From: a virus
Lineage: Duplodnaviria > Caudoviricetes
Strand: one strand, 5' to 3'
Length of the DNA: 54,496 nt
IMG/VR virus record: IMGVR_UViG_3300020201_000027
Location: 1 to 54,496 of that record
The notes beneath the pieces are model-generated. The model was given only the letters and a program-made list of their open reading frames with translations, was not told the DNA's origin and did no database searches. The position numbers and the translations under genes are program-made. Below, in pieces: positions 164 to 18,092 of the stretch; the first letter of the stretch is position 1; each line of letters opens with the position of its first letter.

Positions 164-178
164 TCACGACAAGTTCAG

Positions 179-1948: not shown

Positions 1949-1952
1949 AGTC

Positions 1953-2093
1953 ATGCAATACGGAAATGGGCCTTTCGATCCTGATGAGCTTCCTCCTGCT
2001 GGCTATCGGTGGATTTGGACCTCGTGGGACGGAAAAATATGGCGCATGAAAGAGGAAATTCCTGTTATGCCAATCAAGGAGACTGAAACATGA
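1953..2093 (+). CDS. Small hypothetical protein
   Basis: Fills the gap between neighbours; stop overlaps the next ATG (ATGA). Confidence 0.5.
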   Translation: MQYGNGPFDPDELPPAGYRWIWTSWDGKIWRMKEEIPVMPIKETET

Positions 2094-2575
2094 AGCTCGC
2101 CGAAAATACCATTCGCCGCATATATCTCGCAAGCAGCTGGCGCAACACGGAGCAACCAGATATGGTGTTGACGCTTCGCAAATGGGGGCATGAGGTATAT
2201 GACTTTCGCAACCCGGCACCGGATGACCAGGGGTTCAGCTGGGCGCAAATTGACGCTCATTGGATGGCCTGGACGCCGGAGTGTTACACCAAGCTTGTCC
2301 GCACCCATCCGATGGCGCGCGCCGGTTTCAGGATGGACCATCAGGCGCTGGACTGGTGCGACACGTGCGTGCTGCTGTTGCCCTCTGGCCGCTCGGCCCA
2401 CCTGGAAGCTGGCTACGCTGCTGGACAGGGCAAGCGCGTGATCGTCTATCTCCAGCCTGAAAAATTCGAGCCAGAACTAATGTATCTGCTGTGTGCCGCG
2501 ATAGTCACCACCAAAGCGCAGCTTAAGCACGCTCTCTTTGCTGGTGACCAGGATTTGTCCGGTGGCTGCGCTTGA
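2090..2575 (+). CDS. Nucleoside 2-deoxyribosyltransferase-like protein
   Basis: IYLASSWRN, D..ALDWCD.CVLLLPSGRSAHLEAGYAAGQGK motifs; AAGGAG RBS. Confidence 0.75.
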   Translation: MKLAENTIRRIYLASSWRNTEQPDMVLTLRKWGHEVYDFRNPAPDDQGFSWAQIDAHWMAWTPECYTKLVRTHPMARAGFRMDHQALDWCDTCVLLLPSGRSAHLEAGYAAGQGKRVIVYLQPEKFEPELMYLLCAAIVTTKAQLKHALFAGDQDLSGGCA

Positions 2576-2612
2576 ATTGAGGCGGCGCAGCACCAAGCAA
2601 GGAGACTGAAAC

Positions 2613-3050
2613 GTGACAATCCTCCGTCTCTGTAACAGTTGTGGCGGCGAAGGCTGGTATAGACCATTAGACCCAGCAGGCAATGCGCCTTCTGAGCGAT
2701 GCCCTCACTGCAACACGGCAGCAGTTGCTGAACAGACGCCAGCTGCTGAACTGATAGCTTCAGACAACAGCATCGAAGAATGGTCGTGGACGTGGGTTAG
2801 ATACAAAGATGGCCCAGTGTTCCCGATGCGCGGCAACAACCCAAATGTGAAAGGCGGCTACTCAATTCACTCACCAGTCATGCATCCAGATGAGGTGCTT
2901 GCCTTAAAGGCAAAGATTTTTAAGCTGTGGACTGCTCTGGATGATTTGATTGGTGATGAATACCGCGGATTTGCAGATGGCTCGCACAATGACAAAAGCA
3001 TCAGGGCGCGAGCATGCGTAGTAAGAGATGAAACGTGCAACAAGGACTAA
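2613..3050 (+). CDS. Hypothetical protein with N-terminal Cys pairs
   Basis: CNSCGGEG...CPHC; the AAGGAGACTGAAAC RBS is shared with the gene at 2090. Confidence 0.65.
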   Translation: MTILRLCNSCGGEGWYRPLDPAGNAPSERCPHCNTAAVAEQTPAAELIASDNSIEEWSWTWVRYKDGPVFPMRGNNPNVKGGYSIHSPVMHPDEVLALKAKIFKLWTALDDLIGDEYRGFADGSHNDKSIRARACVVRDETCNKD

Positions 3051-3054
3051 ATGC

Positions 3055-3297
3055 ATGAGCGAAGATATCATCGTCAAAGTTCAACTGCCTTTGGCCCCAT
3101 TCCTACCATCAAATAGGTGGTTGGCGATGATTTACGATCAACAGCGAAGTCTTATGGAGCAGCGCATGCTGACCCACCAAGAGAAGCTGATGATCAAGTT
3201 CAAGGGAGTCAAGATTTACTGTAATGCCACAAAGAACAAGGCAGGAAATAGCTGGGTGTTGACATCAATTTCTCGCAACCAGCTAAGAAAATGGTAG
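3055..3297 (+). CDS. Hypothetical protein
   Basis: ORF in the early operon; AAGGA upstream of ATG 3055. Confidence 0.6.
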   Translation: MSEDIIVKVQLPLAPFLPSNRWLAMIYDQQRSLMEQRMLTHQEKLMIKFKGVKIYCNATKNKAGNSWVLTSISRNQLRKW

Positions 3298-3321
3298 AGG
3301 CACCAACCATCAAATAAACCT

Positions 3322-3351
3322 CTTCTGGAGCTACTGATTCCTCTCTATTAT
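3322..3351 (+). promoter_or_regulatory. Putative early promoter (CTTCTG-N18-TATTAT)
   Basis: Variant of the repeated element at 4798 and 5866 (CTTCTGGAGCnnCTGATTCCnnTCTAT). Confidence 0.55.
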
Positions 3352-3388
3352 ATATAGGCGGAACTACCGCAAACAAACGGAGAGATCA

Positions 3389-3607
3389 ATGTCTGAAAAC
3401 ATTCGCATGAGCTACTATGCTGCCGGGTCAGGGGACTTGATCGTGGAATGCGGCTTCCAGGACGTTGCTACGGCCAAGATAGAGGGGGCACGCCGTGTGA
3501 AGCTCGGCGTGGTTGATATGTCAGGCTTCGGCATCCTGATTGACGAGGATGATGCCCATTCCATATACTCGTGGAGGCCATACACGGGCGGGTGGATGGA
3601 TCGATGA
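3389..3607 (+). CDS. Hypothetical protein
   Basis: GGAG RBS; downstream of a putative promoter. Confidence 0.6.
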   Translation: MSENIRMSYYAAGSGDLIVECGFQDVATAKIEGARRVKLGVVDMSGFGILIDEDDAHSIYSWRPYTGGWMDR

Positions 3608-3879
3608 GCGCATACGTGTTGGGAAGTCGCGCATTGGCTGGTCGCTACAAACTTGACGTCATTAGTCACAACAAGCGCATTGCTGTTACTATTGGCGTCG
3701 TCGGCAGTTTTTGGTATGCCCGCATCGAGAATGCATCAACCCCGTTCAATGTAGTCATGTCAGCTCTGACAGCGGTCCACGTGTGGATGACTGAGAACAA
3801 GTTCAACCCCGGCAACCACAACGCTCACCCTCCCTGCGTCATCAGCAGCGCCATTATCAAGAACTGGGAAATGGGGTGA
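3604..3879 (+). CDS. Hypothetical protein
   Basis: ATGA overlap with the previous gene and GTGA overlap with the next. Confidence 0.6.
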   Translation: MSAYVLGSRALAGRYKLDVISHNKRIAVTIGVVGSFWYARIENASTPFNVVMSALTAVHVWMTENKFNPGNHNAHPPCVISSAIIKNWEMG

Positions 3880-4127
3880 ATGACAGGGAGCGCGCAATTT
3901 TGCTGTATGTCGCGAGGTTCGGTGCTAGCCGGGTCTCTGACATCTGTCTGCCTGGCAACGGCAATCCGCCAAGCAAATCTGAAATTGATGCCCTTGTCAG
4001 ATCAGGATGGCTGTATCAGGCAAGTCAGACGCCCATAAGTCGGCGCTCAAGCCTGAGAGATGTTGATCAAATCTACTGGGGGCTCACAGAATATGGTGTG
4101 ATGCAGGCAAAGAAGCTGATGAGATAG
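3876..4127 (+). CDS. Hypothetical protein, possible winged-helix
   Basis: Coupled ORF; ...IDALVRSGWL...WGLTEYG pattern. Confidence 0.55.
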   Translation: MNDRERAILLYVARFGASRVSDICLPGNGNPPSKSEIDALVRSGWLYQASQTPISRRSSLRDVDQIYWGLTEYGVMQAKKLMR

Positions 4128-4531
4128 TGATAGCAACGATCGTGAAGATCAAATCGGACAAGGAAGCTAAAGTGAAAGATACAATCACTCCGAAGAATAT
4201 CGCCAAGGCAGAACTCAGCAAAATGCTTGACGACATCTGGATAAAATACAGGAAGGAGTGGGTTGCCAATGGCGCTCGTGGTGCCATGGAGTCAATCTAT
4301 CAGAAAATTGCGGCAGATGTTGCTGATGGCAAGACCAATGAGGAATTGCGCGATCACATCAGGGAGACTGTAAAGGAGATAGGGACTGTGAATTGGTGCC
4401 GCGATAACGGAATCACAGTGAACTACCTCTATCAAGTCTTGTCAGGGCGCAAGCCAATAACAGATCGCATCAGCAGGCTGGCGCGATACAAGCGAACCAT
4501 AACCTTTGTTAGGATGGATGACGATGAGTGA
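4127..4531 (+). CDS. Putative DNA-binding protein with C-terminal Cro-like HTH
   Basis: WCRDNGITVNYLYQVLSGRKPIT resembles a Cro/XRE helix-turn-helix. Confidence 0.6.
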   Translation: MIATIVKIKSDKEAKVKDTITPKNIAKAELSKMLDDIWIKYRKEWVANGARGAMESIYQKIAADVADGKTNEELRDHIRETVKEIGTVNWCRDNGITVNYLYQVLSGRKPITDRISRLARYKRTITFVRMDDDE

Positions 4532-4787
4532 CGCCCCAATTGCCAGAGTTCGGAACCTGGCTGTTATGTCATATGCTTCCGGTTTCACCCAGTGGCACTA
4601 CAAGTTGCCGAATGATCACGCCCCTGAAAACGTCCAAAATGCGCTCTACTGGGATGTCGTCCGAGATATGATCAACGCCGGGGACAGCATCTGCGTGTCG
4701 AACGATGTCTATTCCGCGATGGTTGCGGTCATGGCACATGGGGCGGACTTCCATTATCGCATTTTGATGGAGGCAAAATTCATCTGA
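4524..4787 (+). CDS. Conserved hypothetical protein (alphaproteobacterial-type)
   Basis: NLAVMSYASGFTQWHY...DMINAGDSI resembles a small family I recall from Rhodospirillales/Acetobacteraceae; not verified by search. Confidence 0.6.
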   Translation: MSDAPIARVRNLAVMSYASGFTQWHYKLPNDHAPENVQNALYWDVVRDMINAGDSICVSNDVYSAMVAVMAHGADFHYRILMEAKFI

Positions 4788-4797
4788 TGATCGTGGT

Positions 4798-4849
4798 AGG
4801 CGCTCCAATATAGTCGCTTCTGGAGCGCCTGATTCCGGTCTATACTAGG
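4798..4849 (+). promoter_or_regulatory. 52-nt repeated promoter cassette, copy 1
   Basis: Identical to 5866-5917; 10-bp inverted repeat AGGCGCTCCA/TGGAGCGCCT and TATACT -10 box. Confidence 0.75.
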
Positions 4850-4891
4850 TTTCGGTCGGAAAGGCCGATCAGACCAACAGGAGAAGACATA

Positions 4892-5122
4892 ATGGCCAGG
4901 ATCGACAGAGTCAACCCCATGGACGTTCGCATCAAGAACAAGATCAAGGAGCGTTTGGAGAGGTGTATCCATCTCAGGGAGATAGGAGCGCCAGAATTCA
5001 TCCTCAAGAACGAGCAGGCGATGCTCTTCGTTCACCGGCTGGGACATCTGTTCGCGCCAGACATTCGGCGCAGAGTATTTGCTGCGTGGTTCGACCGTCA
5101 GCCGCCTATCACCAGCGAATAA
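4892..5122 (+). CDS. Hypothetical protein
   Basis: AGGAG RBS downstream of the promoter cassette. Confidence 0.65.
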   Translation: MARIDRVNPMDVRIKNKIKERLERCIHLREIGAPEFILKNEQAMLFVHRLGHLFAPDIRRRVFAAWFDRQPPITSE

Positions 5123-5161
5123 TGAGAGTCAGCCTACCCATCAGACCAACAGGAGAGTGCC

Positions 5162-5419
5162 GTGGTTCTCAATCTTATTCCCACCCCAATCGACAAAATC
5201 ATCAAGGACCGAACTGACCGTCATATTGTCGTTGCCAGGTTTGCGCCTCTCGTGGATGCGATGCGCGGCATCGTCAACGAGATCATCACAGATATGTCTG
5301 ATCTCAAGGTTGGCCCTGAGGTTCTGGCTCCCTGGCAGGACGCGATCAGAGAACTCATCGTCCATCGGCTCACCCAGTCAACCTCCCGGTTCATCCGCAT
5401 TGTTGATTTGGAGGACTAG
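5162..5419 (+). CDS. Hypothetical protein
   Basis: ACCAACAGGAGA RBS shared with the genes at 4892 and 5959. Confidence 0.65.
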   Translation: MVLNLIPTPIDKIIKDRTDRHIVVARFAPLVDAMRGIVNEIITDMSDLKVGPEVLAPWQDAIRELIVHRLTQSTSRFIRIVDLED

Positions 5420-5423
5420 CCTT

Positions 5424-5588
5424 GTGGTCGCTCTGGACATCTGCGTCTATGCTATTCTGGCATATGGCGTATATTCATATGCAAAGTCCCAGGCACCGAT
5501 AGCCGGGGTTGACCATCTCGGGCTTGACCCGGCTATCAAGATCACCATCAACTCCAGCGATGAATGCGGCAACAAGACTGAGTGGTAA
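5424..5588 (+). CDS. Small putative membrane protein
   Basis: GGAGG upstream; hydrophobic ICVYAILAYGVYSY segment. Confidence 0.45.
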   Translation: MVALDICVYAILAYGVYSYAKSQAPIAGVDHLGLDPAIKITINSSDECGNKTEW

Positions 5589-5851
5589 CTCTCCCCAAAT
5601 CAAAGGATGCTAACATGCCCTACATCTGGATCCCGCGCCTCGTAACATATTATGACCAGGTCAACCGGGTCTTGGTGTTTGAGACCATTGATTCATTCAT
5701 CAAGTCTGTCGATACGGCCTATGATAAGTCACCTGTCAAACCAGTCATCTACAGGACAAAAACAGTAGTGATGGTGGAGCACGAGAGCAATTTGGTGGGT
5801 CACCTGGTCTATCGCCCGATCATCCCAAGTGATGCCATCGCCTATCTCTGA
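5582..5851 (+). CDS. Hypothetical protein
   Basis: ORF in the early operon. Confidence 0.5.
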   Translation: MVTLPKSKDANMPYIWIPRLVTYYDQVNRVLVFETIDSFIKSVDTAYDKSPVKPVIYRTKTVVMVEHESNLVGHLVYRPIIPSDAIAYL

Positions 5852-5865
5852 ATGTCTGGAGGAGC

Positions 5866-5917
5866 AGGCGCTCCAATATAGTCGCTTCTGGAGCGCCTGA
5901 TTCCGGTCTATACTAGG
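5866..5917 (+). promoter_or_regulatory. 52-nt repeated promoter cassette, copy 2
   Basis: Identical to 4798-4849. Confidence 0.75.
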
Positions 5918-5958
5918 ATTAGGTCGTAAAGGCCGATCAAACCAACAGGAGACGACAG

Positions 5959-6375
5959 ATGACCCATACAGAAGATGCCCAAAAAATGTTTGATATCTCC
6001 ACCGTCCATATGATCCGCCAGGGTGAGCGAGCAGTCGATGAATCTGGCGCCTGCAAATACCGGACTGCCAACGGCCTGAAGTGTGCGGTGGGAGTCCTGA
6101 TCCCGGATGCTGAATACTCGAAATGGATGGACAGGGCCGGCAGTCTCCACGAGGTTATTCGGACGGCGCATCGCAACAATCTTATGACTCCGACCATTCA
6201 GCTGATGCACGAGCACCGTCTTTTGTTGACCAGTCTGCAGGAGGCGCACGACTATGCCGCTCTGTGGGAAGATGGTATGGTGGCGTTGGTGCATAACCTC
6301 CGCGACACTGCCGCATCATTCAATCTGAATTGTGATGCGTTGGATGCTGCGGTGGCGGCCAGGTCGATCTCCTAA
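5959..6375 (+). CDS. Conserved phage hypothetical protein
   Basis: CKYR....LKCAVGVLIPD...LQEAHD pattern; AGGAG RBS. Confidence 0.7.
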   Translation: MTHTEDAQKMFDISTVHMIRQGERAVDESGACKYRTANGLKCAVGVLIPDAEYSKWMDRAGSLHEVIRTAHRNNLMTPTIQLMHEHRLLLTSLQEAHDYAALWEDGMVALVHNLRDTAASFNLNCDALDAAVAARSIS

Positions 6376-6452
6376 GCATTCTCACCGGTGGTGCATATGC
6401 TAGCGCATAGGCACCACCATCCTGCATCCTCACACTCTGGAACCCACCCCCC

Positions 6453-6860
6453 ATGGCCAAAAATAACTATCAAGAAACTGCTAGGCAGTATCAGATGGAT
6501 GGCAATGTTGCCGTGCGCATATCTACTGGCGAGAGATTGAGCGTTGACGAGAGCCGGGGCATCCGACGCATGGCTGATTGGAGGTCTCGCGCCTCGGATG
6601 GCCTTCCTCACGAATATAGTGATACGGATTGCGTGATCCTCAAAAAGCCATACAAGTTGAAATGCACCTCTGGATGTCAGGAGGCGATCCAGCCCGATAC
6701 TGAGCACGTCCAGTCATTCGAGTATAATAAAAGCGACGATGTTTTGGTAGGTCAGGGAAGGATCACTAGGCATGAGATCGTCTGTGAGGCCTGCTGGAAT
6801 ATAGTTACAGGCAAGCGTATTTCGCAGCAGAGGTTTAGGGAGGAAGGTCCGGGCTGGTAG
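6453..6860 (+). CDS. Hypothetical protein (Cys pairs)
   Basis: 135-aa ORF with CTSGC and CEAC; no clear RBS. Confidence 0.5.
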   Translation: MAKNNYQETARQYQMDGNVAVRISTGERLSVDESRGIRRMADWRSRASDGLPHEYSDTDCVILKKPYKLKCTSGCQEAIQPDTEHVQSFEYNKSDDVLVGQGRITRHEIVCEACWNIVTGKRISQQRFREEGPGW

Positions 6861-6984
6861 GTCGAATGGTAGGGCGCCTAGGAGCGTGGTAGGGCTTGAT
6901 CAGGGGAGGGGGGAGCTAGGGCTACCGCGGAAAGTGGTAAAGGCTGGTTAGCAAGGCGTAGGGGGGTGTAGCGGGCTTTGAAAG

Positions 6985-7372
6985 TGACTACGCGCGCGCG
7001 CTGGCGCTCCCCCGCGCGTAAGATGACCCTACGCCGGAATTTTTAGCATGAAACATTTTTTGTTCGATGCTATTCGTTTTAACTGGCGTAGACGTAGACT
7101 GAAAAAAGAGACTAGGATTAATGTTTTATTATCAGGTAGTTATATACTGTTATGAGCAGTATTGAGGTCTACTCCATATAATGGATGGCGTAGACCTTTG
7201 CTGAGTATATTATTTAGACTGGGGGTAGTTTGCGGCTATATGTAGGTATTAGTGAAATATGTTGCGGGAAATTCGATGATGGTGCCACCGTGTTCTATGC
7301 TACAGATATTTCGAGCCGTAGGGTCATCTTAGGCGCGCGATATGCGCGAGCGCGCCTACGCGCGCGTAGTCA
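6985..7372. repeat. Inverted-repeat-bounded element, copy 1 (origin candidate)
   Basis: Outer IR TGACTACGCGCGCG (6985/7372), inner IR TAAGATGACCCTACG (7019-7033/7317-7331), AT-rich core; homologous to 36815-37058. Confidence 0.75.
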
Positions 7373-7686
7373 AGTGATGAAGCTTGTATTCATGGCGTTT
7401 GTTAGTGTATGCTGTTGGTGGTGCGTTGAATGTTGTGTGGCGTGTTGCCCGGCTATTAGTGTCATTGGGTGTTTTTTGTGGTAATTGGCTGGTTGGTGTG
7501 TGGTTGTTCACAACAACTTGACGCTGAAAAACACACACATGAAACTCGTATGCACACATACAAAAATAAGCAATAATATCAGGCACTTATCACAAATAAA
7601 GCTCCGGCAAATTAACACAGCGTTCAGAGTTTCAGTTGCCCCGCAATCTATTCTGGCGACCTCTGGCTGAGTTTCAACAGCCAATC

Positions 7687-7932
7687 ATGTGAAACTCAAA
7701 CTCAACTAGCTGCATGACGACCTAGAAAAGAGTCATGTGAAGCTCAAACTCAATCCCACTCAACACCTAGACCAAACCGACCCTGTGCATGACGACCCTG
7801 TGCATGACGACCCTGAGTTTGAGTTTCACACATGTTTCACCCAGACCAGACCAGACCAGACCAGACCAGACCAATGCATGACGACCCTGAGTTTGGAACT
7901 CACATTCACAACCTGAGTTTGAGTTTCACACA
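7687..7932. repeat. Mixed repeat array
   Basis: TGCATGACGACC x4, TGAGTTTGAGTTTCACA-like motif in both orientations, (CCAGA)6 at 7841-7870. Confidence 0.85.
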
Positions 7933-7942
7933 CGCCCCCCAC

Positions 7943-7974
7943 AAAAAATAGCCGAGGCTCATTGCCCCGGCTAT
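7943..7974 (-). terminator. Rho-independent terminator of the leftward operon
   Basis: Minus strand ATAGCCGGGGC-AATGA-GCCTCGGCTAT followed by a T run, just after the stop at 7980. Confidence 0.8.
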
Positions 7975-7979
7975 CCCCT

Positions 7980-8174
7980 TCACTTCCCCAAATTGGTCAC
8001 CGCCTCATTGAGGAATGATCCGCAGCCGACAAATTCCCCAGGCGGGTCTTTCATAGCCACCTTCACCTTCACAGCAGCATCAGACATCACATTGTTTATT
8101 TCAATCTCTACGCTACCGCCTCCATTGTTTTGGACCCACCATACCAGCTCACGCACGCTACGGAAAGACCGCAT
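7980..8174 (-). CDS. Hypothetical protein
   Basis: 64 aa; TGATG coupling to the upstream peptide; terminator follows. Confidence 0.65.
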   Translation of the reverse strand: MRSFRSVRELVWWVQNNGGGSVEIEINNVMSDAAVKVKVAMKDPPGEFVGCGSFLNEAVTNLGK

Positions 8175-8275
8175 CAGAAGTTTCGCTCAATGAAGCGATA
8201 CAGCGGGCCAACCACCATCAGCCTCAGGCCAATCCCAAGGCCCAGGATCCAGAACAAGATCACGCTCTCAACCAT
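8174..8275 (-). CDS. 33-aa single-pass membrane peptide (not in ORF track)
   Basis: AGGAG RBS; MVESVILFWILGLGIGLRLMVVGPLYRFIERNF. Confidence 0.6.
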   Translation of the reverse strand: MVESVILFWILGLGIGLRLMVVGPLYRFIERNF

Positions 8276-8343
8276 CTCTTTTCGCTCCTATATAGAAGAA
8301 AGGGTAGCGGGGAGGGGGGTATCACCCCCCCCTCACCCTTAGC

Positions 8344-8847
8344 CTAGACGCGCGCCACCAGCTTACCTTTCCGGGGAGCGGCCACCAGCTTCCGCCCGAT
8401 GATGGCGATGGCGGTGGACTCCGCCTTGGCCTCGGCGGGGATGACAACGTCTCCCGCCTTGAGACCCTTGGGGAACCCGATCGCATTGGGAACCTCATTA
8501 GCCGAGACGAAAGCCCCATCCGCCCGGCGTTTGAGCTCGAAGTAAACGGCCGGCTTCGAGTTGCGGTGGAGGTAGAGCCCGGCCCGGACAGAAGCCGGAT
8601 CGTATCCGATACCCAACTCGGCATCGACCACCTTCGCCGCGAGGTCGATCCAGTCCGAGAGCGGGACCGGCGCCTTGGAGACCGCGAGAGCCTTGAGGGA
8701 GTTGGAGCGGAGGCTTTCCTTCCTCGCGTTATAGAACTCCCCAGTCCAGTAGATATAACGCCCGCTTTCCTCATAGCGCGCCTTAGCCGCTTTAAGGGCG
8801 TCAGGAGACACCGTTTCCGGGCGGCGGAAACCTTTAAATCCACGCAT
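8344..8847 (-). CDS. Hypothetical basic protein, fourth gene of the leftward operon
   Basis: 167 aa, GGAG RBS and ATG start; no Gln, Cys or internal Met. Confidence 0.8.
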   Translation of the reverse strand: MRGFKGFRRPETVSPDALKAAKARYEESGRYIYWTGEFYNARKESLRSNSLKALAVSKAPVPLSDWIDLAAKVVDAELGIGYDPASVRAGLYLHRNSKPAVYFELKRRADGAFVSANEVPNAIGFPKGLKAGDVVIPAEAKAESTAIAIIGRKLVAAPRKGKLVARV

Positions 8848-8884
8848 CGTTACTCTCCATTGTTTGGCCTTTCCGAAAGGAAAC

Positions 8885-8922
8885 CTTTCGGATAGTCGAG
8901 CCGAAACTCGACTATCCGAAAG
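8885..8922 (-). other. Perfect 16-bp hairpin
   Basis: CTTTCGGATAGTCGAG / CTCGACTATCCGAAAG with a TTTCGG loop on the minus strand. Confidence 0.8.
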
Positions 8923-8925
8923 AGG

Positions 8926-9231
8926 CTAGGAAAGGGGCGGAGGTAGCCTCCCCGTAGAGATATAGACGGGGAGAAGTATAGATAGGCTCCTAGGGTAGGT
9001 ATTAGAAGCCGCTTCTAGGACGTTACGGCCGTATCCGTAGAGGGTAGGAGTAACGAAGGTCGTATATCCGGTCGCTACTCCGCTCTTACCCTTATCTATT
9101 ACGAAATAACTACCCTTCTCTAACCCGCGCCCGAATACCCGGACTAGGATCGTTCCGATAGTAACTCTTTCGCCTTCGCGGAGGGGTAGACCCTCCGCTA
9201 CTAGCGCGCGCTCTATTAGGGACTTAGGAAT
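8926..9231 (-). CDS. 101-aa hypothetical protein, ATT start (not in ORF track)
   Basis: AGATAGGAGGCTACT-ATT; (M)PKSLIERALVAEGLPLREGERVTIGTILVRVFGRG...STGRLPPPLS*. Confidence 0.8.
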   Translation of the reverse strand: MPKSLIERALVAEGLPLREGERVTIGTILVRVFGRGLEKGSYFVIDKGKSGVATGYTTFVTPTLYGYGRNVLEAASNTYPRSLSILLPVYISTGRLPPPLS

Positions 9232-9256
9232 AGTAGCCTCCTATCTTTAGGAAGTA

Positions 9257-9637
9257 TTAAAGGCCGAACCGTTCCGAAAAGGCTCTATCCGCGGCGCGAG
9301 TTTCCGCCGCCGCGTAGACCTCGTAAGTAACTCCGGCTTCTTTCGCGCGGGCTTTATCTTCCGCGAGAATAAAATCGGCGACCGCTACTTCCGCTTCCGT
9401 ATAGGCGAGTAGGGCGATACTAGCCTCGCGGTATCTTTTCGCGTATTCTTTAGCCGCTTCCGTAACGCGACGAGTAGCCTTTTCCTCGATAAGGATAGCC
9501 TTACTATAGGCTTCCCTAGCTAGGGTATAGGCGAAACTCTTTACTTCCCCTATCGCCCTTTCCGTAGCGTCTCGCGCGAGAATATACTTAGCGCGCGCCT
9601 CTATTTCGTTAAGCCGTAGACGATTTAGCGTTTCGAT
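9257..9637 (-). CDS. 126-aa helical hypothetical protein, ATC start (not in ORF track)
   Basis: AGATAGGAGGCTACT-ATC; (M)ETLNRLRLNEIEARAKYILARDATERAIGEVK...RAADRAFSERFGL*. Confidence 0.82.
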   Translation of the reverse strand: METLNRLRLNEIEARAKYILARDATERAIGEVKSFAYTLAREAYSKAILIEEKATRRVTEAAKEYAKRYREASIALLAYTEAEVAVADFILAEDKARAKEAGVTYEVYAAAETRAADRAFSERFGL

Positions 9638-9652
9638 AGTAGCCTCCTATCT

Positions 9653-9862
9653 CTAAAGAGCGCGAAGGGCGGATCGGGCGGAAATTCGCGCGCGCCGGGC
9701 GGAGTAGGTAGCCTTATCCGCGCGCTCTATAGCGTCCCTCTCCCCGTTAAGAGAGGCTAAGGCGTTAAGGCGCCCCGCCTCGTAAGAGAGGGTAGTAAGA
9801 GCGTCTATAGCGTAGAGAGCTCGCTTCTTAAGCGAGGAAGGGGAAGCGGGAGATTTAGGAAT
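9653..9862 (-). CDS. 69-aa hypothetical protein, ATT start (not in ORF track)
   Basis: AGATAGGAGGCTACT-ATT; (M)PKSPASPSSLKKRALYAIDALTTLSYEAGRLNAL...ARSALRAL*; its stop abuts the next RBS cassette. Confidence 0.78.
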   Translation of the reverse strand: MPKSPASPSSLKKRALYAIDALTTLSYEAGRLNALASLNGERDAIERADKATYSARRARISARSALRAL

Positions 9863-9923
9863 AGTAGCCTCCTATCTTTAAGGTTAGAGAGGCTAAGGGC
9901 CCTTCCCTCTCTCTCTATTTAGG

Positions 9924-9952
9924 AGTCTATACCCTACCCCCCCCTAGGTCTA
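9924..9952 (-). promoter_or_regulatory. Putative sigma70-like promoter TAGACC-N17-TAGACT
   Basis: Exact 17-nt spacer, about 60 nt upstream of the first ATT start. Confidence 0.55.
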
Positions 9953-10087
9953 GTTACGACTTGTTAATATAGGGCTTGTGTTTTTCGGCTCGCTTCCGGG
10001 CTCGCGTAGAGGTAGTTGTAGCCTCCCACAAGTTGCATCGCGCACCAACATCGCGCACGCCGACAATCTCACACCAACACCCGCACA

Positions 10088-10107
10088 AAAAATTTTGCAA
10101 AATTTTT
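10088..10107. repeat. 20-bp perfect palindrome upstream of terminase genes
   Basis: AAAAATTTTGCAAAATTTTT within a CA-rich non-coding tract. Confidence 0.7.
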
Positions 10108-10189
10108 CACCAACAGCAAACACAAACACCATTTCACACAATGTCACAAAAATATAACTAGCCCCGGCAATCTCCATCATATAGGATAA

Positions 10190-10840
10190 ATGCCGTTAAC
10201 CCCAATCAACCCAAGCCAACAGAATATCATGTCTCGCAAGAAAGTGCCAAGTCCAAAAGAGCCCACCAGACAGGATGAGTATCTGGTCAAGCGTTCAATA
10301 ACGCAAGCAATGAAACATGACATGGCAGGCGGCGTGCTGCCACTAGTCGTTGATTCAAAGCAGCGTGCCATGGCGATTGCGAGAGCCCGGCCAGCACCGA
10401 CCATCAATTTGAAAGAGAACCTGCTTAGGATAGTTGAGGAAGCAGACCCTCTTGGGTTCCTGATAAGCGTTCAGCGAGGAGACCTTCAGCCAGTCAGCCA
10501 CGTGAACGGAATTGGGGAAATTGAGGTGCGGTATGTGCAACCTGACCTGGGCATACGGGTTGGAGTGGCTGAGTTCCTGGTCCATAAGATATTGCCAACG
10601 ATCAGCTTGAAGATGCAGAACCCATTTCAGGATGGAGCAGAATCAGAAAAGGAAGCGCCTGTCCGCCCCGGCCAACCCGGTGCTCCAACTTTCAGCGAAA
10701 TGGTTAGCCGGGCGGCGGTGATGGCGCGTGCACAAGCAGCTGGACATGACAAGTTGCCTGGGGCCAGATTTGAACCGGTGAAAGATGAAGGACAAACATA
10801 TGGGGGACAAATCATTGAACCGAACGATGATGACGAATGA
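10190..10840 (+). CDS. Putative terminase small subunit
   Basis: First gene of the packaging operon; size and DPLGFL...R..VAEFLVHKILP pattern; called mainly by position. Confidence 0.55.
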   Translation: MPLTPINPSQQNIMSRKKVPSPKEPTRQDEYLVKRSITQAMKHDMAGGVLPLVVDSKQRAMAIARARPAPTINLKENLLRIVEEADPLGFLISVQRGDLQPVSHVNGIGEIEVRYVQPDLGIRVGVAEFLVHKILPTISLKMQNPFQDGAESEKEAPVRPGQPGAPTFSEMVSRAAVMARAQAAGHDKLPGARFEPVKDEGQTYGGQIIEPNDDDE

Positions 10841-10953
10841 GTTGAAGCAGGAGGCGTATGCTGAGAAGCGTCGTCTACAGACTACTCACAATCTGGACAG
10901 GCATTTCCTCATTTACTTTGTGGAGCCTCCGCCAAAAGGGGAAAGGGCAGTCC

Positions 10954-11175
10954 GTGAATGAGTCTGGGGATCGAAGGTTCTGGGCAGCGGTCTTTGTCAC
11001 AGTTGTGATCCTGGGGCTGTATGCCATGGTGATCGCTGGGGTGGCTCCGGTGCCGGTGGATGACCTGAAGGAGACGTTGAAGATGAGCGTGGTTGCTGTC
11101 ATCAGCTATTGGATTGGTTCCAGCAGCGGCAGCGCGGCCAAAGATGCACCCCGAGCCCCGGTCATCAAAGAATGA
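10954..11175 (+). CDS. Putative holin (two TM helices)
   Basis: FWAAVFVTVVILGLYAMVIAGV and VVAVISYWIGSSSGSAAKD; probable GTG start (longer ATG start at 10858 possible). Confidence 0.6.
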   Translation: MNESGDRRFWAAVFVTVVILGLYAMVIAGVAPVPVDDLKETLKMSVVAVISYWIGSSSGSAAKDAPRAPVIKE

Positions 11176-12686
11176 GCCTGATTGATGCCATGGCATATTG
11201 GCGCAACAACCCAGTCGAGGCCGTCAAGGACTGGTTTGGGGTGACGCCTGAAGACTATCAAGGTGATGTTATCAATTCCTTGATGGGGCCAACAGGCATG
11301 GACCGCGTTACGGTGAAGAGCGCGCATGGCGTCGGCAAGACCAGCGTGGAGGCCTGGACTGGTTGGATTTATCTCATGACCCGTCCAGTTAGCCGCGTTG
11401 TGGCAACTGCACCAACTCAGAGCCAGCTAAAGGACATCCTGTGGTCTGAGTATGCTAAGTGGCACCAGAAGATGCCAGAAGAATTTCAGGGAATGTGGGA
11501 CATAAGTGAGACGCACATTCGCCACAAAGAGCTGCCCAAGACCTGGTTTGCTGTGGCGCGCACAAGCAATAAGCAGGAGAACCTGCAGGGGTTCCACGGC
11601 GACAATATCTTCGTCCAAATTGACGAGGCATCTGGCGTCCCAAACAACGTGTTTGAGGTGATCGAGGGCATTCTCACCTCTGCTGACGAGCATGGATTGG
11701 AGGCAAAGTTGCTCATGGCCGGGAACCCAACGCAGCTTGGCGGCGAGTTCTACAATAGCTTCAACCGCAACAAGCTCTTGTATTCCCGGTTCACTGTCTC
11801 GGGAGACAGAACCCTCCCAACTGACAAAAACGGCGGCAAAATATACCTATCCAGGCGCGTGACTGAGAAATATCGCAGCACGATGGGCGCCAAGTATGGC
11901 TACCAATCAGCAGTATATGACGTGCGTGTTCGCGGCCTGTTCCCCACTGTTGGCGATGGCGTTGTGGTTCCATTCGATTGGGCAGAGAGGGCGCAGTATA
12001 TTGAGCTGCCAAGGTTCGACTATGTGGCTGATGGCATCACCCTGGTCATGGACGTTGCGCGGTCTGGCGGCAATGAGACGGTCCTGGGCGCATTCCGGCG
12101 CGGGCACTGTCTCTGGCTCCAGGCCAGGCCGCAGACCATGACCAATGAGTGCGTGAACATGATCATTGAGGCCAAGACCAGCCTGGAGGCCAATCAGCTT
12201 CGAGTCATACGCATAATTGTGGATGAGCCAGGAGTTGGCGGCGGAGTCATTGATGTGGGACGCAATGCCGGCCTGGCCATAACTGCCTACAATGGCGGCT
12301 CTGGCCTTTCTGCTGAGAACGGCGATAACCCTGATGAAATTCGGATGTTTGCGACACGTCGCTCGCGGGATTGGTGGGTGGTTCGCAGGATGATGGAAAG
12401 CGGAGCTATGAAGATACCTGAGGACGAGGAGTTGGTCAATCAACTTGCCTCTCTCAAGTATGAATACAGCGACCGTGACAAAATAATGGTCGAAACCAAG
12501 AGAAAGCTGCGCGAGCGTCTTGGTGGTGATGCCACAATTGACCGGGCTGACGTCATTGTTATGGGCTGCGCTCCGTGGAAGAGCCTTATCAATGCAACCC
12601 CGGTTCTCACGCCTGAGCAGCTGGCTGACTTGGATTATGCTGCATTGCGCCCCACCTCTGAGCACAACTTGAGCGAGTTCTCCTGA
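11172..12686 (+). CDS. terL: Terminase large subunit
   Basis: Walker A-like SAHGVGKT, Walker B VQIDEA, coupling motif GNP, nuclease MDVARSG...D and DRADV. Confidence 0.92.
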   Translation: MSLIDAMAYWRNNPVEAVKDWFGVTPEDYQGDVINSLMGPTGMDRVTVKSAHGVGKTSVEAWTGWIYLMTRPVSRVVATAPTQSQLKDILWSEYAKWHQKMPEEFQGMWDISETHIRHKELPKTWFAVARTSNKQENLQGFHGDNIFVQIDEASGVPNNVFEVIEGILTSADEHGLEAKLLMAGNPTQLGGEFYNSFNRNKLLYSRFTVSGDRTLPTDKNGGKIYLSRRVTEKYRSTMGAKYGYQSAVYDVRVRGLFPTVGDGVVVPFDWAERAQYIELPRFDYVADGITLVMDVARSGGNETVLGAFRRGHCLWLQARPQTMTNECVNMIIEAKTSLEANQLRVIRIIVDEPGVGGGVIDVGRNAGLAITAYNGGSGLSAENGDNPDEIRMFATRRSRDWWVVRRMMESGAMKIPEDEELVNQLASLKYEYSDRDKIMVETKRKLRERLGGDATIDRADVIVMGCAPWKSLINATPVLTPEQLADLDYAALRPTSEHNLSEFS

Positions 12687-13114
12687 TGCAAATGAGAATG
12701 GTTCGCACTGGCTTCTACAGGAATGAGACTGTTGGCGACCTATATATTGATGGGCACCATTTCTGCTATACCCTGGAGGATACTGTCCGTGCGCCAGGAA
12801 TCAAGGTAGCGGGCAAAACTGCCATTCCTTATGGGAAATATACTGTCAGGGTGACTTGGTCACCTCGCTTCAGGATCAATATGCCGTTGCTGATTGGCGA
12901 CGATACATTCAACAAAGATTGGTCAGGGGTGCGCATCCACGCTGGCAACTCCCACACAGACACAGAAGGCTGCATTCTGGTCGGCAGGACTCTGATTCAG
13001 TGTGGGCTCGGATATGAGTTGCGCGCCAGCCGACTTGTTTATCTGGACCTGCTTGAGAGACTGGTCTACCACAGAAAAGATGTCTATTTGGAGATTTGCA
13101 ATGGCGTGGTATGA
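12686..13114 (+). CDS. DUF5675-like protein (putative endolysin)
   Basis: YTLED...KTAIPYGKY...GVRIHAGNSHTDTEGCILVG. Confidence 0.75.
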   Translation: MQMRMVRTGFYRNETVGDLYIDGHHFCYTLEDTVRAPGIKVAGKTAIPYGKYTVRVTWSPRFRINMPLLIGDDTFNKDWSGVRIHAGNSHTDTEGCILVGRTLIQCGLGYELRASRLVYLDLLERLVYHRKDVYLEICNGVV

Positions 13115-14522
13115 TGGTCTGACTACAGCCTTCCGTTCTGCCGTTGGTCGCCCTCGCAATATTGAGAGTGAGGTTACTGTCCATGAGGGCGCATCACTAT
13201 CTATGTGGCCAAAATTGGAGAGCAATCGCAAAGATGCGCTCTACACTCTCACCAATACTGATGAATTGCTTCGGCGCCAAGGATTCAAGGTATATCGAGA
13301 CATGCTGGCAGATGACACCGTCAAGGCATGCCTTTCATTCAAGAAGATTTTGGTCCACGGCCGCAAATGGACTGTATCTCCAGCTGGCGGCAATAATTCC
13401 AGCGAGCAGCAGCAAAAGCACGCTGACTTTGTTCTGGACGCAATGCAGGGCATTGCAATGAACCGGATCATCCGCGAGATGTTGACGGCATTCAATTTCG
13501 GCTTCAGCATGGGAGAGATCATCTGGGAGGTCAAGCCGCTCGGGGATGATTCTGAGCTCAAGGTTTTGCTCAAGGATATCAAATTCCGTGCTCCTGATTA
13601 CATCTGGATTGACATGGATATGCACGGCAATATCGTTCGCTTCCGTCAGGAACCTGGAGTGGCGCCTGGCGTTGTCCTCTTGAATCCGAACAAGGTGATC
13701 CATTACGCCTATGGCGGCGAACATGGCAATCACTATGGGGTGAGCGATCTGCGCGCTTGCTATGCTGCGTGGTGGTCCAAAAAGTTCATCACCCAGTTCT
13801 GGAATGTGTTCCTAGAACGGTTCGGACAGCCTCTGATGATGATGAAATATCCGCAGGGCGCTGACCAAAACCTCAAAGACTCACTCAAGTCTATTCTCAC
13901 CAGCCTGTCCAGTCGGTCAGACATTCTTGTGCCAGAAGGCGTTGAGATCAACTTGATTGAGGCCACGCGCGCTGGCAGCGCAGGATACTCAGAGGCTTTG
14001 AATTATTGCGATGTCCGCATCTCTCGGGGCATCCTAGTCCCGGCTCTCCTTGGGATGGGCACAGATGTGAAGCGAGGCGCAGACAGCCAGAGCAGACTTC
14101 ATCTCCGCATTCTCATGAAACTTGCCAATGATTCCTGCGAGGACATCTCTGCAGAAATGAAGAAAAAGATCATTGAGCCTCTCATCATGATGAATTTCTC
14201 GGACTACAAGCCTGGCATGGAGCTTCCTGACTTCGTATTCCTGGATTATGGGGAGTATGAGGGCATTGAGATCGTGGACAGCGCCATCAACATGTTCAAC
14301 TCTGGCATGCTGGATGTAGACCAAAAAGACATCAACTTCCTGCGGTCAGCAGTAGGTCTGCCGCTTCGTGAGGAAGGAGATGAGGACGAGGTTATGAGGG
14401 CTCCGCCACCGCCGACAGGAACCAGCCCAAATGACCCGAATGCAACAGGAGCAGGAGGGTCCAAGAACAACAACCGAGCAACCAAAGGACCAGCAGACAA
14501 GGTAGCGTCTGGCGGCGCCTGA
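13101..14522 (+). CDS. Portal protein (Mu gp29/DUF935-like)
   Basis: FGFSMGEIIW, YGVSDLRACY..W..K, WNVFLERFGQP...KYP motifs; position after terL. Confidence 0.88.
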   Translation: MAWYDGLTTAFRSAVGRPRNIESEVTVHEGASLSMWPKLESNRKDALYTLTNTDELLRRQGFKVYRDMLADDTVKACLSFKKILVHGRKWTVSPAGGNNSSEQQQKHADFVLDAMQGIAMNRIIREMLTAFNFGFSMGEIIWEVKPLGDDSELKVLLKDIKFRAPDYIWIDMDMHGNIVRFRQEPGVAPGVVLLNPNKVIHYAYGGEHGNHYGVSDLRACYAAWWSKKFITQFWNVFLERFGQPLMMMKYPQGADQNLKDSLKSILTSLSSRSDILVPEGVEINLIEATRAGSAGYSEALNYCDVRISRGILVPALLGMGTDVKRGADSQSRLHLRILMKLANDSCEDISAEMKKKIIEPLIMMNFSDYKPGMELPDFVFLDYGEYEGIEIVDSAINMFNSGMLDVDQKDINFLRSAVGLPLREEGDEDEVMRAPPPPTGTSPNDPNATGAGGSKNNNRATKGPADKVASGGA

Positions 14523-14543
14523 GCACAAAATTGGATAGGGCAC

Positions 14544-15458
14544 ATGAACATTGCATTCACTACCTGGGTGACGCCTGGGACGCTTCGCTGGCACACTCGT
14601 TTCTTTGTGCCAAGCTTTATTCGTTGCCTATCCAGCACGCCGGTGATTCCTGGCGCAAAGATCAGTGTGCATATCGCGTTATATGACTTGCCAGATCACA
14701 TCTGCGACTATATTGCAGATGCCTGGAAAAATTGCCCTATTCCTGTGTCTTTTCGCAGAGAGAGCCACCCTGGTATGCGCCGGCACCATCTGATGTTCCG
14801 CGCGTTCAATCGGATTGCCGGGCTTGAGCCTGACAGCGCTCACATTTACGACTATATTATCTCTCTGATGCCGACCACCATCTTTGAGAAAGATGCCGTC
14901 CGAGACTATTTGGACAGTGCTGTGCGTATGGAGATGATGCCAGAAGCAGGAGCGGTGGTCCACATTCGCGGCACCGCAAAAATAATGACGCACGACAGGA
15001 ACGCCATCACCCCAAAGAACTCCTGGTGGCTTCGGTGCCATGAGGGCATAACATTCAGAAATATTGGCAAGAACAGCGCAATATATGATTTCTTCATTCA
15101 TCGCAGTATCAACGTCAAGAGCAAGATGTATCTTGAAGACACTGCAATCCTCTATGGCTTGATGATGGAAGGTCACGGTCTATATGTACGACATTACCAT
15201 CAGGCAACCACATTCGATCCTATGTATGCTCGGTCAGCCCACAGGCACATGCTGAACCCATATGGGCGTGTTCGCGGAGACAACTGGGACTGTAATTTGA
15301 ACAATGGATGGACTGGCGCACATGACAAGACGTTCTTTGATCAGTTTCTAGAAGTTGGCTCTTGGATGAAGAAATATGACTTCATCAAAGGATTGAGCTA
15401 CAAAATAGGGTTCCTGGGACAATTTTATTCAAAAAACGAAACATTAAAAAAACAGTAG
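14544..15458 (+). CDS. Hypothetical protein inserted in the head module
   Basis: 304-aa ORF, aromatic/His-rich, no recognised motif. Confidence 0.7.
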   Translation: MNIAFTTWVTPGTLRWHTRFFVPSFIRCLSSTPVIPGAKISVHIALYDLPDHICDYIADAWKNCPIPVSFRRESHPGMRRHHLMFRAFNRIAGLEPDSAHIYDYIISLMPTTIFEKDAVRDYLDSAVRMEMMPEAGAVVHIRGTAKIMTHDRNAITPKNSWWLRCHEGITFRNIGKNSAIYDFFIHRSINVKSKMYLEDTAILYGLMMEGHGLYVRHYHQATTFDPMYARSAHRHMLNPYGRVRGDNWDCNLNNGWTGAHDKTFFDQFLEVGSWMKKYDFIKGLSYKIGFLGQFYSKNETLKKQ

Positions 15459-15491
15459 CGCATCCAGAAAACTGACGATATAGTCCTGCTT

Positions 15492-16559
15492 ATGGCTGGA
15501 ACGATCAACCGTTTGGAGATTTTTGCCGCAGGAACGTGGTCTCCCGCCAATGGCGGAAAGATCACAGTGGCAGAAAGTGATCTTGATGAGATGGTTGCTC
15601 ACTTCTCTGAGCTGAGCGGATCAAACATTGTTAAGCCTCACCTGAAGCTCGGACACGGTGATGCTCAGCGTTGGTTCGGCCAAAAGACTGGCATCCCAAC
15701 TCTGGGATGGGTTGACAATGTTTGGCGCGAAGGGCAGAAGCTGTTCGCGAATATTGTGGATGTGCCTGAGGCGCTTCTGGATATGATTCGCCAACGTCGA
15801 TACCACAATGTCTCGGTCGAAGTTTTCAGGCCAGGTGAAGTTGAGTTCAATGGCAGGAAGCTCGGGCATGTGCTCTCTGCCATTGCTATCTTGGGCACTG
15901 AAATGCCAGCGGTCACAGACCTGGCAGGATTGGCCAGCGCCCTGTTTGCGTCGCAATTCTCATCTGGCCTAGCCCAAAAGCCTACTGAGTTCACCGCTGA
16001 GAAGGATCGCCCAGCAATGTTCACCCAGCCACAGGTTGATGCCCTCATTGACGCTGCGGTCCACGCAGCCGCTGGTGTCGCATCTGCCAAATTCGCCTCA
16101 GCCGTTGATGCCCATCGGGTTGAGCTCCAGGTGATGACGGCTCGCGCCGACACGGCTGAGCGCGCGCTGGCTGTCAATGCAGCGGAGTTCGCCCAGCGCG
16201 AGGCTGCCACCATTGTCGATCAAGCCATCAAGGATGGCAAGCTCATGCCCGCGCAGAAGGACATGGCCCTGGCCTTCATGGGCAGCATCTCCGGCAAGAT
16301 CAGCTTTGGCGGAACCGAGAAGCCGGCCAAGGTTCTGTTCAGCGAGTTCATCGCCAGCTTTGGCAAGCAGGTGTCGCTCGGGGAATTTGGCTCAGGTAAG
16401 AGCAATACTGAATTCGCCAATGCTGCGGCAGAGGTGGATTATCTCGTGAAGCAGCGCATGTCCGATGACAAGTCCGGCAAGACGGACTATTCAATGGCGT
16501 TTGCTGCGGTCCGCTATGAAAATCCAACCCTCATGTCCCGCTACGCTGCGGGGGAGTAA
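15492..16559 (+). CDS. Mu-like prohead protease/scaffold
   Basis: EIFAAGTW, LKLGH, GWV, YHNVSVE, PAV..L; helical C-terminal scaffold with GKLMPAQK. Confidence 0.85.
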   Translation: MAGTINRLEIFAAGTWSPANGGKITVAESDLDEMVAHFSELSGSNIVKPHLKLGHGDAQRWFGQKTGIPTLGWVDNVWREGQKLFANIVDVPEALLDMIRQRRYHNVSVEVFRPGEVEFNGRKLGHVLSAIAILGTEMPAVTDLAGLASALFASQFSSGLAQKPTEFTAEKDRPAMFTQPQVDALIDAAVHAAAGVASAKFASAVDAHRVELQVMTARADTAERALAVNAAEFAQREAATIVDQAIKDGKLMPAQKDMALAFMGSISGKISFGGTEKPAKVLFSEFIASFGKQVSLGEFGSGKSNTEFANAAAEVDYLVKQRMSDDKSGKTDYSMAFAAVRYENPTLMSRYAAGE

Positions 16560-16565
16560 ACACCA

Positions 16566-16991
16566 ATGTCATGGAATGAGGACTATCACGCACGTCCGAT
16601 GAAGGCGCTATACAGCTTTGACGGCCTTCAGGGCCGCGCTGCTGATTTCGCCACTTCAGAGGACAATGCCATCACGGCAGCCGCTGGCGGCACGGGATAT
16701 GGCATCGTGATGAATGATCCGCGCACTGGCGAGCACGCCACTGTCGCCGTTCGTGGCGTGGTCCGTGCTCGGGCTGCTGCCTCCATCACTCGTGGCGCAT
16801 TCATCACCGTGGCAGTGTCCGCTACCGGCGGCCCAGGATGGCTTCGCTCTGTGGTGTCAGGAGACACTGCGCCGATGACCATAATGGGCCGCGCAATGAG
16901 CTCAGTCGCCAGCGGATCGCTCTTTGCCCTGGAACTGAATGTGCAACGCGCGTTTGTTGCCGGCTCGGGCAACACCCTGCTGGCTGTGTAA
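16566..16991 (+). CDS. Capsid cement/decoration protein (DUF2190-like)
   Basis: Gly/Ala-rich; GIVMNDP..GE.ATV...G pattern; sits between protease and capsid. Confidence 0.7.
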   Translation: MSWNEDYHARPMKALYSFDGLQGRAADFATSEDNAITAAAGGTGYGIVMNDPRTGEHATVAVRGVVRARAAASITRGAFITVAVSATGGPGWLRSVVSGDTAPMTIMGRAMSSVASGSLFALELNVQRAFVAGSGNTLLAV

Positions 16992-17004
16992 AGGAGAATT
17001 TCGT

Positions 17005-17961: not shown

Positions 17962-18092
17962 CAAACTCACATCCAGAGGGGGCACACTCTGGATGTGATC
18001 TACTTCTCAGCTGCAAAGTTGAGAACCTTGACGGCGTTTGACGCCTAGTGCCCTGGGCGTTAAGCGCCGTCATTGCACAAGGGCACAATACA

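Follow-up and report, generated by a model that had tools for sequence, protein, structure and literature searches.

Three reading frames behind one initiation cassette

The window analysed here, IMGVR_UViG_3300020201_000027 (Caudoviricetes), represents one entire virus contig from IMG/VR; it measures 54,496 bp, and nearly all its genes lie on the plus strand. A short leftward unit, with a block of small early-type genes on one side and the terminase genes on the other, holds three open reading frames (ORFs), ORF1 to ORF3, which open with ATT or ATC and lie in DNA devoid of the dinucleotides TG and CA. An earlier note on this DNA, made from its letters alone, had proposed three hidden genes tiling the region behind a shared initiation cassette, and the frames proved to be as described. 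All are on the minus strand: ORF1 (9653-9862, 69 aa) opens with ATT and ends in a TAG (9655-9653) that abuts the second cassette; ORF2 (9257-9637, 126 aa) opens with ATC and ends in a TAA (9259-9257) 10 nt before the third cassette; ORF3 (8926-9231, 101 aa) runs from ATT to TAG. Over all six frames they are the longest stop-free stretches of the region, at 72, 129 and 104 codons, the next having 53, and the distance from a stop to the next start in the unit is 15 to 25 nt. By hand arithmetic, with ~6.9% stops per codon, the chance of 69, 126 and 101 stop-free codons following three pre-defined cassettes is ~6e-10. The first codon positions of ORF1-3 are G-rich (0.32-0.47).

The cassette is a 17-nt minus-strand sequence, AGATAGGAGGCTACTAT, present exactly three times, at 9877-9861 (cassette 1), 9652-9636 (cassette 2) and 9246-9230 (cassette 3). 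No further copy was found in the window with up to 3 mismatches allowed, and in 100 shuffles the mean number of matches was 0.06, with three or more in none. Read in frame, it runs stop (TAA or TAG)-AGA-TAG-GAG-GCT-ACT-AT(T/C), so that the open frames begin 3 codons before ATT or ATC, right after an in-frame double stop. Cassettes 1 and 3 open with TAA-AGA-TAG, lead to ATT and are 97% alike across 29 nt; cassette 2 opens with TAG-AGA-TAG and leads to ATC. In all three, 5 nt separate the end of AGGAGG from the near-cognate start, within the 5-9 nt expected behind a Shine-Dalgarno (SD) sequence. The SD had been called strong, and the survey bears this out: these are the only perfect AGGAGG sites among the gene starts surveyed (3/3 for ORF1-3 versus 0/52 crudely called genes of the genome). 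The initiation regions of ORF1-3 fold no more strongly than shuffled sequence.

Two other leads on the cassette were rejected. The exact sequence has four matches in IMG/VR, all in ordinary SD contexts and with no islands. An alternative genetic code with TAG or TGA reassigned is ruled out by long table-11 ORFs throughout the genome and by stop usage in 42 crude genes (TGA 22, TAA 14, TAG 6); as to TAG reassignment at the cassettes, cassettes 1 and 3 also hold an in-frame TAA.

The predicted products of ORF1-3, 296 aa together, use exactly 15 amino acids, with no Met, Cys, Trp, His or Gln, as the earlier note had observed. It had also suggested tBLASTn and structure prediction: no homologues of the ORFs were found, and ORF2 gave a helical model (pLDDT 93.9), predicted to form a 99-residue helix and a second helix in a coiled-coil-like arrangement. 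An Mrr_cat hint for ORF2 (E 0.073) was rejected, the model being one long helix. Pfam and PHROGs assigned ORF1-3 to no family, the PADLOC and anti-CRISPR libraries lying outside that search. ORF2 had no match by tblastn against phages or in a word-indexed protein search; ORF2 and ORF3 matched no related loci in IMG/VR; ORF3 had no usable match in the ESM Atlas; and when all island ORFs were compared locally by tblastn with each locus that had been fetched, they matched only themselves. Exhaustive HMMER with ORF3 yielded two weak matches, both to repeats of giant proteins (E 2.7e-7 and 1.5e-5). One lies inside Laminin_G_3 repeats, and the matches cover, through residues 21-79, too little of a domain to interpret. 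That the three would be anti-defence or host-takeover factors, as had been proposed, fits the context only, one of small, variable and presumably strongly expressed genes.

An island without TG and CA

The ORFs are embedded in an island at 8866-9962 (1097 nt) in which, by composition count, neither TG nor CA occurs on either strand. Genome-wide, the two are found at 0.159 per nt, about one per six bases (rho ~1.3 outside the island), and the second-longest gap free of them is 50 nt; hand arithmetic that assumes independence puts the chance of none in 1097 nt at ~1e-82. The exclusion takes in the ORFs, the spacers, 85 nt ahead of cassette 1 and a hairpin after ORF3, and no trinucleotide beyond those containing TG or CA is missing. 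When the same 296 residues were encoded with genome codon usage in 2000 simulations, a mean of 97 and a minimum of 70 TG/CA steps resulted, versus 0 observed. The over-used codons of the island are CTA, GTA and ATA, replacing CTG, GTG and others.

The two oddities of the ORFs are by-products of this strict exclusion. Because every NTG start holds TG, a TG-free sequence is NTG-free, which leaves ATT and ATC; and because all Met, Cys, Trp, His and Gln codons contain TG or CA, the proteins are confined to 15 letters. The earlier note had explained the starts as forced by TG avoidance, which is supported and yet too narrow, since both TG and CA are excluded, on both strands, over 1097 nt that include non-coding DNA. 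No description of TG/CA-free or TG/CA-depleted islands in phages was found in print, judged by the titles and abstracts of the matching papers listed. We class the island, its hidden genes of 15 letters included, among features of a new kind; AUU/AUC initiation itself is already known.

TA is raised in the island (rho 1.95 versus 0.55 in the rest of the genome) and Tyr is frequent (5.7%), as H/C>Y changes would yield. Both would suit a context-specific mutator, either a C>T process at CpA like that of repeat-induced point mutation (RIP) or a deaminase, that erased TG and CA. We regard such an origin as very improbable. CG is enriched as well (rho 1.40 versus 0.79), the G+C content of 53.4% is not lowered, and the three frames are intact although CAA, CAG and TGG would turn into stops; a RIP-like or deaminase hypermutation signature was rejected on these grounds. 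Moreover, the starts are ATT and ATC, whereas G>A changes would give ATA, and purity is total even where protein selection would resist change. Restriction-site avoidance, which would concern palindromes of 4-8 bp and usually be genome-wide, was likewise rejected, the avoided word being TG/CA and the avoidance local to the island.

Directly after ORF3 and still inside the island, the minus strand at 8884-8923 holds an 18-bp hairpin with a T-rich tail (-35.3 kcal/mol, z -6.3; none of 200 shuffles folds equally well), a putative terminator or RNA-stabilising hairpin judging from its predicted fold.

Recurrence of islands in related phages

Relatives were fetched via alignment of the large terminase (TerL; 11109-12686, plus strand, identified by PHROG matches), and 100 loci were scanned, 84 from IMG/VR and 16 from metagenomes; the closest TerL relatives, at 97% and 80% identity, lie outside the loci scanned. 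TG/CA-free runs of at least 150 nt upstream of TerL occur in three of the 100 (L010, L092 and L100), and islands in 3 of the 15 relatives with TerL identity of at least 50% and at least 1 kb of upstream sequence. TerL identity of the island-bearing relatives is 55-58%. In L010 (55%) the DNA upstream of the terminase genes is TG/CA-free over at least 1183 nt, up to the contig end, and L010 is the sole IMG/VR locus (1/84) with a TG/CA-free run of at least 150 nt; runs without other dinucleotides in these 84 loci mirror overall composition. L092 has runs of 171, 138 and 85 nt in a near-island of ~1.2 kb, and L100 runs of 275 and 243 nt in a near-island of ~0.6 kb. The islands are alike in composition (TA rho 1.6-1.95, CG rho 1.4-1.6) and not in sequence, and their cargo differs.

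The few TGs left in L092 and L100 include ATG starts behind repeated SD cassettes of their own; the window and L010 therefore stand at the extreme of a graded trait, with the start codon purged too. This bears on the proposal that the purge was directed at start codons, removing every NTG in six frames and leaving SD-driven AUU/AUC sites, perhaps with low IF3 fidelity. A sequence with no TG logically has no NTG, the perfect SD sites would mark the sole intended starts, and a passage of PMC9723500 describes IF3 as discriminating against non-canonical starts. Yet ATG starts persist in L092 and L100, where almost every other TG and CA is gone, so the target would be the dinucleotide and not initiation. 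The proposal also gives no reason for the antisense strand to lack starts, and tRNA and Rfam scans of the phage had no match, hence no phage initiator tRNA. We consider it decidedly unlikely.

A further possibility is protection at the RNA level, with transcripts avoiding UG and/or CA against an endoribonuclease (for example of MazF type, cutting at ACA) or an RNA-binding factor. It would suit a transcription unit ending in a strong hairpin, as the island appears to be, and the extreme strand asymmetry of the flanks, TG against CA. A single RNA motif, however, predicts the loss of one dinucleotide on the sense strand only, and here both are gone from the same strand and from non-coding parts as well. 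The downstream genes of the leftward unit are TG-rich, and in relatives, where the orientation of the locus is reversed, both dinucleotides are again absent. We hold RNA-level protection to be rather unlikely.

The islands of L010 and L092 hold further small ORFs on the plus strand that are unlike ORF1-3. These are L010:745-1122 and L092:1126-1284, 1904-2041 and 2042-2218. The first two of L092 have the repeated SD-ATG cassette and contain no TG or CA beyond the ATG; the third has its own SD-ATG and four more TGs past it.

A TG/CA-free member of a conserved gene family

The next gene of the leftward unit, at 8344-8847 on the minus strand (167 aa, ATG start, GGAG SD), belongs to a conserved locus family. 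One member, L010:300-809, is a wholly TG/CA-free ORF and the longest frame of its stretch; it is homologous to gene 8344-8847 (34% over 139 aa, E 6e-11) and to L014:8431-8868, and its ATT aligns exactly with the ATG of the latter. ATT thus occupies the place of ATG in this homologous pair, and the W, C, H, Q and M of normal copies are replaced in L010:300-809 by F, N, V, L, Y, E and S. Judged by these alignments, a bona fide protein family has a version that is free of TG/CA and starts with ATT. Across the family, M, C, W, H and Q together make up 4.4% of residues in 44 called homologues (range 0.5-11%); the corresponding values are 11.8% for TerL (120 proteins) and 12.2% for the window genome (42 proteins).

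Gene 8344-8847 is itself partly depleted (0.069 TG/CA per nt versus 0.159). Of its 35 TG/CA steps, 32 lie in codon phases 2-3 or 3-1, where they can be synonymous, and it has four M/W/C/H/Q residues; its sequence looks like that of a formerly pure gene regaining TG and CA. Its AlphaFold2 model (pLDDT 66) had no Foldseek match at E <=0.001. For the family, the ESM Atlas gave leads only (0.82, to DUF6433), and in a wide VIA fold search the best Z was 3.6, with many weak rows being winged-helix domains, again a lead only.

Strain variants and the reality of the genes

The stretch is present in seven DNA runs of microbial-mat metagenomes, on contigs from independent assemblies with strain differences, and one X2 contig covers 8000-10500 without a break; it is therefore a real molecule. 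Strain differences were read from contigs of four runs, and the counts given here are of the differences listed, beyond which 10 further ones exist. Eight of those listed lie inside the island, seven of them inside ORF1-3. Six of these seven are synonymous changes at third codon positions of the predicted frames: ORF1 has one (9770), ORF2 has two (9413 and 9425), and ORF3 has three and also carries the seventh, an F>Y change. This is a coding signature of the kind left by purifying selection, in a small sample. Furthermore, none of the eight creates a TG or CA, versus 33% of possible substitutions (41% of transitions), which gives p ~0.04 by hand arithmetic. On this sequence evidence, ORF1-3 are very likely real genes missed by gene callers; the strain polymorphism and the ATT-to-ATG pair in relatives together support the earlier view that they are hidden from such programs.

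The contrary view, that ORF1-3 are not genes and instead represent non-coding repeats in structural DNA near a packaging or replication region, or that the stretch is an assembly or synthetic artefact, is hardly credible and largely refuted. The island does adjoin iteron-rich non-coding DNA and the terminase genes, and no homologues of ORF1-3 were found. But the listed variants are synonymous, the TG/CA-free ORF of L010 has homologues of normal composition, and the stretch recurs in seven runs and in independent assemblies with strain differences.

In run X1, the Logan contigs break at 9050, 9117 and 9141, with adaptor-like loose ends and a local depth spike. These breaks look like an assembly artefact of that run and not a feature of the phage.

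Exchange of cargo at the cassettes

In one X2 contig, 8847 is connected through 260 different letters to 9636, where cassette 2 has its edge, so that cassette 2 marks a junction of alternative cargo. A relative with 95% TerL identity has a contig that stops exactly at the island edge, and many members of the locus family lie on contigs only 1-2 kb long. Strains differ from one another at 6 of 1091 positions in the island (0.55%) and at 33 of 306 in gene 8344-8847 (11%). The junction, the contig ends, the short contigs and the divergence between strains together identify a hypervariable accessory locus with the cassettes as junctions.

The same observations could indicate that the island was imported by recent recombination from a TG/CA-free donor, in which case the phage would impose no constraint and the island would decay. 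The low divergence of the island relative to gene 8344-8847, the resemblance of the TG/CA pattern in that gene to decay from a TG/CA-free ancestor, and the exchange of cargo at a cassette all speak for it. Import, however, merely shifts the question to the donor. The low M/C/W/H/Q content of the 44 homologues and the islands in relatives of 55-58% TerL identity mark a long-lived property of the locus, the listed variants create no TG or CA, and no wholly TG/CA-free contig turned up in the searches made, which were not by composition. We consider recent import unlikely, though it deserves some weight.

Probable selection against a DNA-level factor

Given the exclusion and its recurrence, we lean towards a reading, and hold it to be probable, in which ORF1-3 are real genes in a swappable locus kept TG/CA-free by selection against a DNA-level factor. 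Selection would act on double-stranded DNA, because the exclusion is two-stranded, reaches non-coding DNA and ignores gene orientation, with TA and CG enriched. Under this reading, ORF1-3 would be co-oriented genes of a small leftward unit in a hypervariable accessory locus just upstream of the terminase genes, and in this phage clade the locus would stay free or nearly free of the TG/CA step on both strands. In a fully purged island, genes could start only at near-cognate AUU or AUC. Passages of PMC5499595 describe such starts as weak and context-dependent in vitro, and expression from near-cognate starts is expected to depend on IF3 fidelity and context, according to parts of PMC5499595 and PMC9723500. 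The weakness would be offset in three ways: by a perfect AGGAGG with 5-nt spacing, by initiation regions without strong folding, and by short stop-to-start distances that would permit translational coupling for ORF2 and ORF3. Initiation at AUU/AUC would be driven by the SD, with fMet as the initiator residue, and the near-identical cassette would double as a portable junction for cargo exchange between strains.

The factor itself would be one that reads TG/CA in double-stranded DNA, for example a nuclease or a DNA modifier active in this conflict of phage and host, and ORF1-3 would remain intact and expressible while other DNA is attacked. That the exclusion amounts to target-site avoidance of such a factor is our best guess. 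Going one step further, the clade might keep its swappable gene set TG/CA-free so that it is invisible to a dinucleotide-reading enzyme, perhaps a nuclease or modifier by which other DNA is destroyed or marked in the course of infection, a form of self/non-self discrimination by dinucleotide exclusion. Functional natural proteins of 15 amino acids, translated from AUU/AUC and all overlooked by gene callers, would be a side effect; this is a real possibility, though on balance we doubt it.

Several points weigh against our preferred reading. No TG/CA-reading enzyme was found in the 54.5-kb genome among 29 proteins scanned against Pfam. The remaining genome is TG/CA-rich, so that a nuclease model needs a reason for the immunity of this locus only, and TG/CA is present in the genes that follow in the same leftward unit. 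The low divergence of the island is consistent with recent import as well as with constraint. Frame length alone gives only p 0.004-0.013 (a frame of at least 129 codons arose in 1.3%, and a top-three sum of at least 305 in 0.44%, of 5000 simulations of the island by a first-order Markov model), a modest signal because TGA cannot occur in the island. Frame conservation rests on few variants (eight listed), because homologues of ORF1-3 were not found. In addition, the seven runs come from one habitat and year, maybe from one campaign, and all are DNA runs, with no RNA run among those listed as containing the stretch.

Comparison with known systems

In E. coli, infC and pcnB are AUU-initiated genes. 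ORF1-3 resemble them in having a near-cognate AUU/AUC at proper SD distance; unlike infC and pcnB, where the start is a regulatory device of one gene in normal DNA, the island holds three adjacent genes in 1.1 kb of NTG-free sequence with a maximal SD. The cassettes also recall the PeSL of T4-type phages, mobile regulatory cassettes that contain an early promoter as well as a stem-loop and by which small ORFs are flanked and shuffled. Shared with PeSL are a near-identical short regulatory sequence before each small gene, a hyperplastic locus and a recombination junction (9636), whereas the repeat of the island lacks a promoter and is a module of 17-29 nt made up of stop, stop, SD and start.

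Dinucleotide depletion is known elsewhere, as CpG/UpA depletion in vertebrate RNA viruses and as fungal RIP, in which CpA/TpG are removed and TpA is raised. The removed unit is a dinucleotide and not a longer site in these cases as in the island. In contrast to these processes, which are genome- or repeat-wide and incomplete (and, for RIP, gene-destroying), depletion in the island is complete and local, the frames are open, and CG and TA are raised. ACA-less mRNAs, which escape cleavage by MazF, are similar in that genes without a short nuclease target still encode protein; they differ in avoiding a trinucleotide on the sense strand only, with no amino-acid loss, and in being mostly an engineered concept.

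Phage T5 and site avoidance offer another parallel, a short word locally absent from a phage region with early or accessory genes. In the first-step transfer of T5, 8% of the genome enters first and its pre-early genes destroy host DNA; a passage of PMC10644984 notes that the first-injected DNA survives this destruction, for a reason still unclear. Known site avoidance concerns words of 4-8 bp, often palindromic, and is statistical. The island, in contrast, lacks a non-palindromic dinucleotide and its complement absolutely, and pays with five amino acids and all normal start codons.

If our reading holds, a class of phage genes without ATG, GTG or TTG would escape standard annotation, and a composition scan would detect it. 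Natural proteins that fold although Met, Cys, Trp, His and Gln are all missing would bear on reduced-alphabet evolution and design. The cost of the exclusion (five amino acids, the normal starts and ~100 codon choices per 900 nt) would imply a strong agent recognising a single dinucleotide step in this phage-host system, and its identification might lead to a nuclease, modification or defence principle not known before. The cassette would in turn be a natural compact AUU/AUC expression module suited to studies of initiation fidelity.

Genome context

Beyond the leftward unit and TerL, the genome contains structural genes and a replication block whose members include an SNF2 helicase, an AEP primase, a UvrD helicase, ThyX, an RNase T-like exonuclease and DnaE. 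Neither blastn nor megablast of the island and of 1-20000 matched the INPHARED phages, and TerL alone had no match in IMG/VR. The TerL and locus-family alignments matched no genome contigs, and these therefore gave no prophage or host clue. A sigma-70 promoter scan found none within the island, and the promoter of the leftward unit was not located.

Adjoining the leftward unit, 6860-8000 is ~1.1 kb of non-coding DNA. Several families of iterons occur in it, among them a 15-mer (3-4 copies), a 21-mer (three copies, which have inverted partners) and a (CCAGA)x5 run. Palindromic arms rich in GC lie at 6985-7033 and 7317-7372, one stretch is AT-rich, and the whole is a candidate replication origin or packaging region. 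The first part of this DNA, 6860-7040, has an island-like composition, with many TAGG/CTAGG and rich in CG, and its plus strand is nearly without CA while TG is present. This may be a decayed or one-strand form of the exclusion.

Upstream of the island, a GT-rich tract at 9963-10189 (minus strand) has inverted-repeat arms in common with 7400-7507: the GT-rich tracts at 7400-7507 (plus) and 10063-10128 (minus) form inverted repeats, one of 21 nt at 90% and one of 16 nt at 88%, to either side of the leftward module of ~2.6 kb. The flanks are the genome's most strand-asymmetric windows for TG versus CA. The module may invert, the gene of the locus family being reversed relative to TerL in L010, L092 and L100.

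Two small ORFs on the minus strand border the genes described above. Downstream of gene 8344-8847, after a G/C-rich hairpin, 8174-8275 encodes a hydrophobic product of 33 aa behind a GGAG SD; this ORF is TG-rich, and the exclusion therefore does not span the whole leftward unit. Upstream of the island, a 76-aa ORF at 9950-10180 nearly abuts a putative small-terminase start at 10190 on the opposite strand. It matches L090:3-161, from the relative with 95% TerL identity (47% identical, E 1e-7), and is a putative gene.

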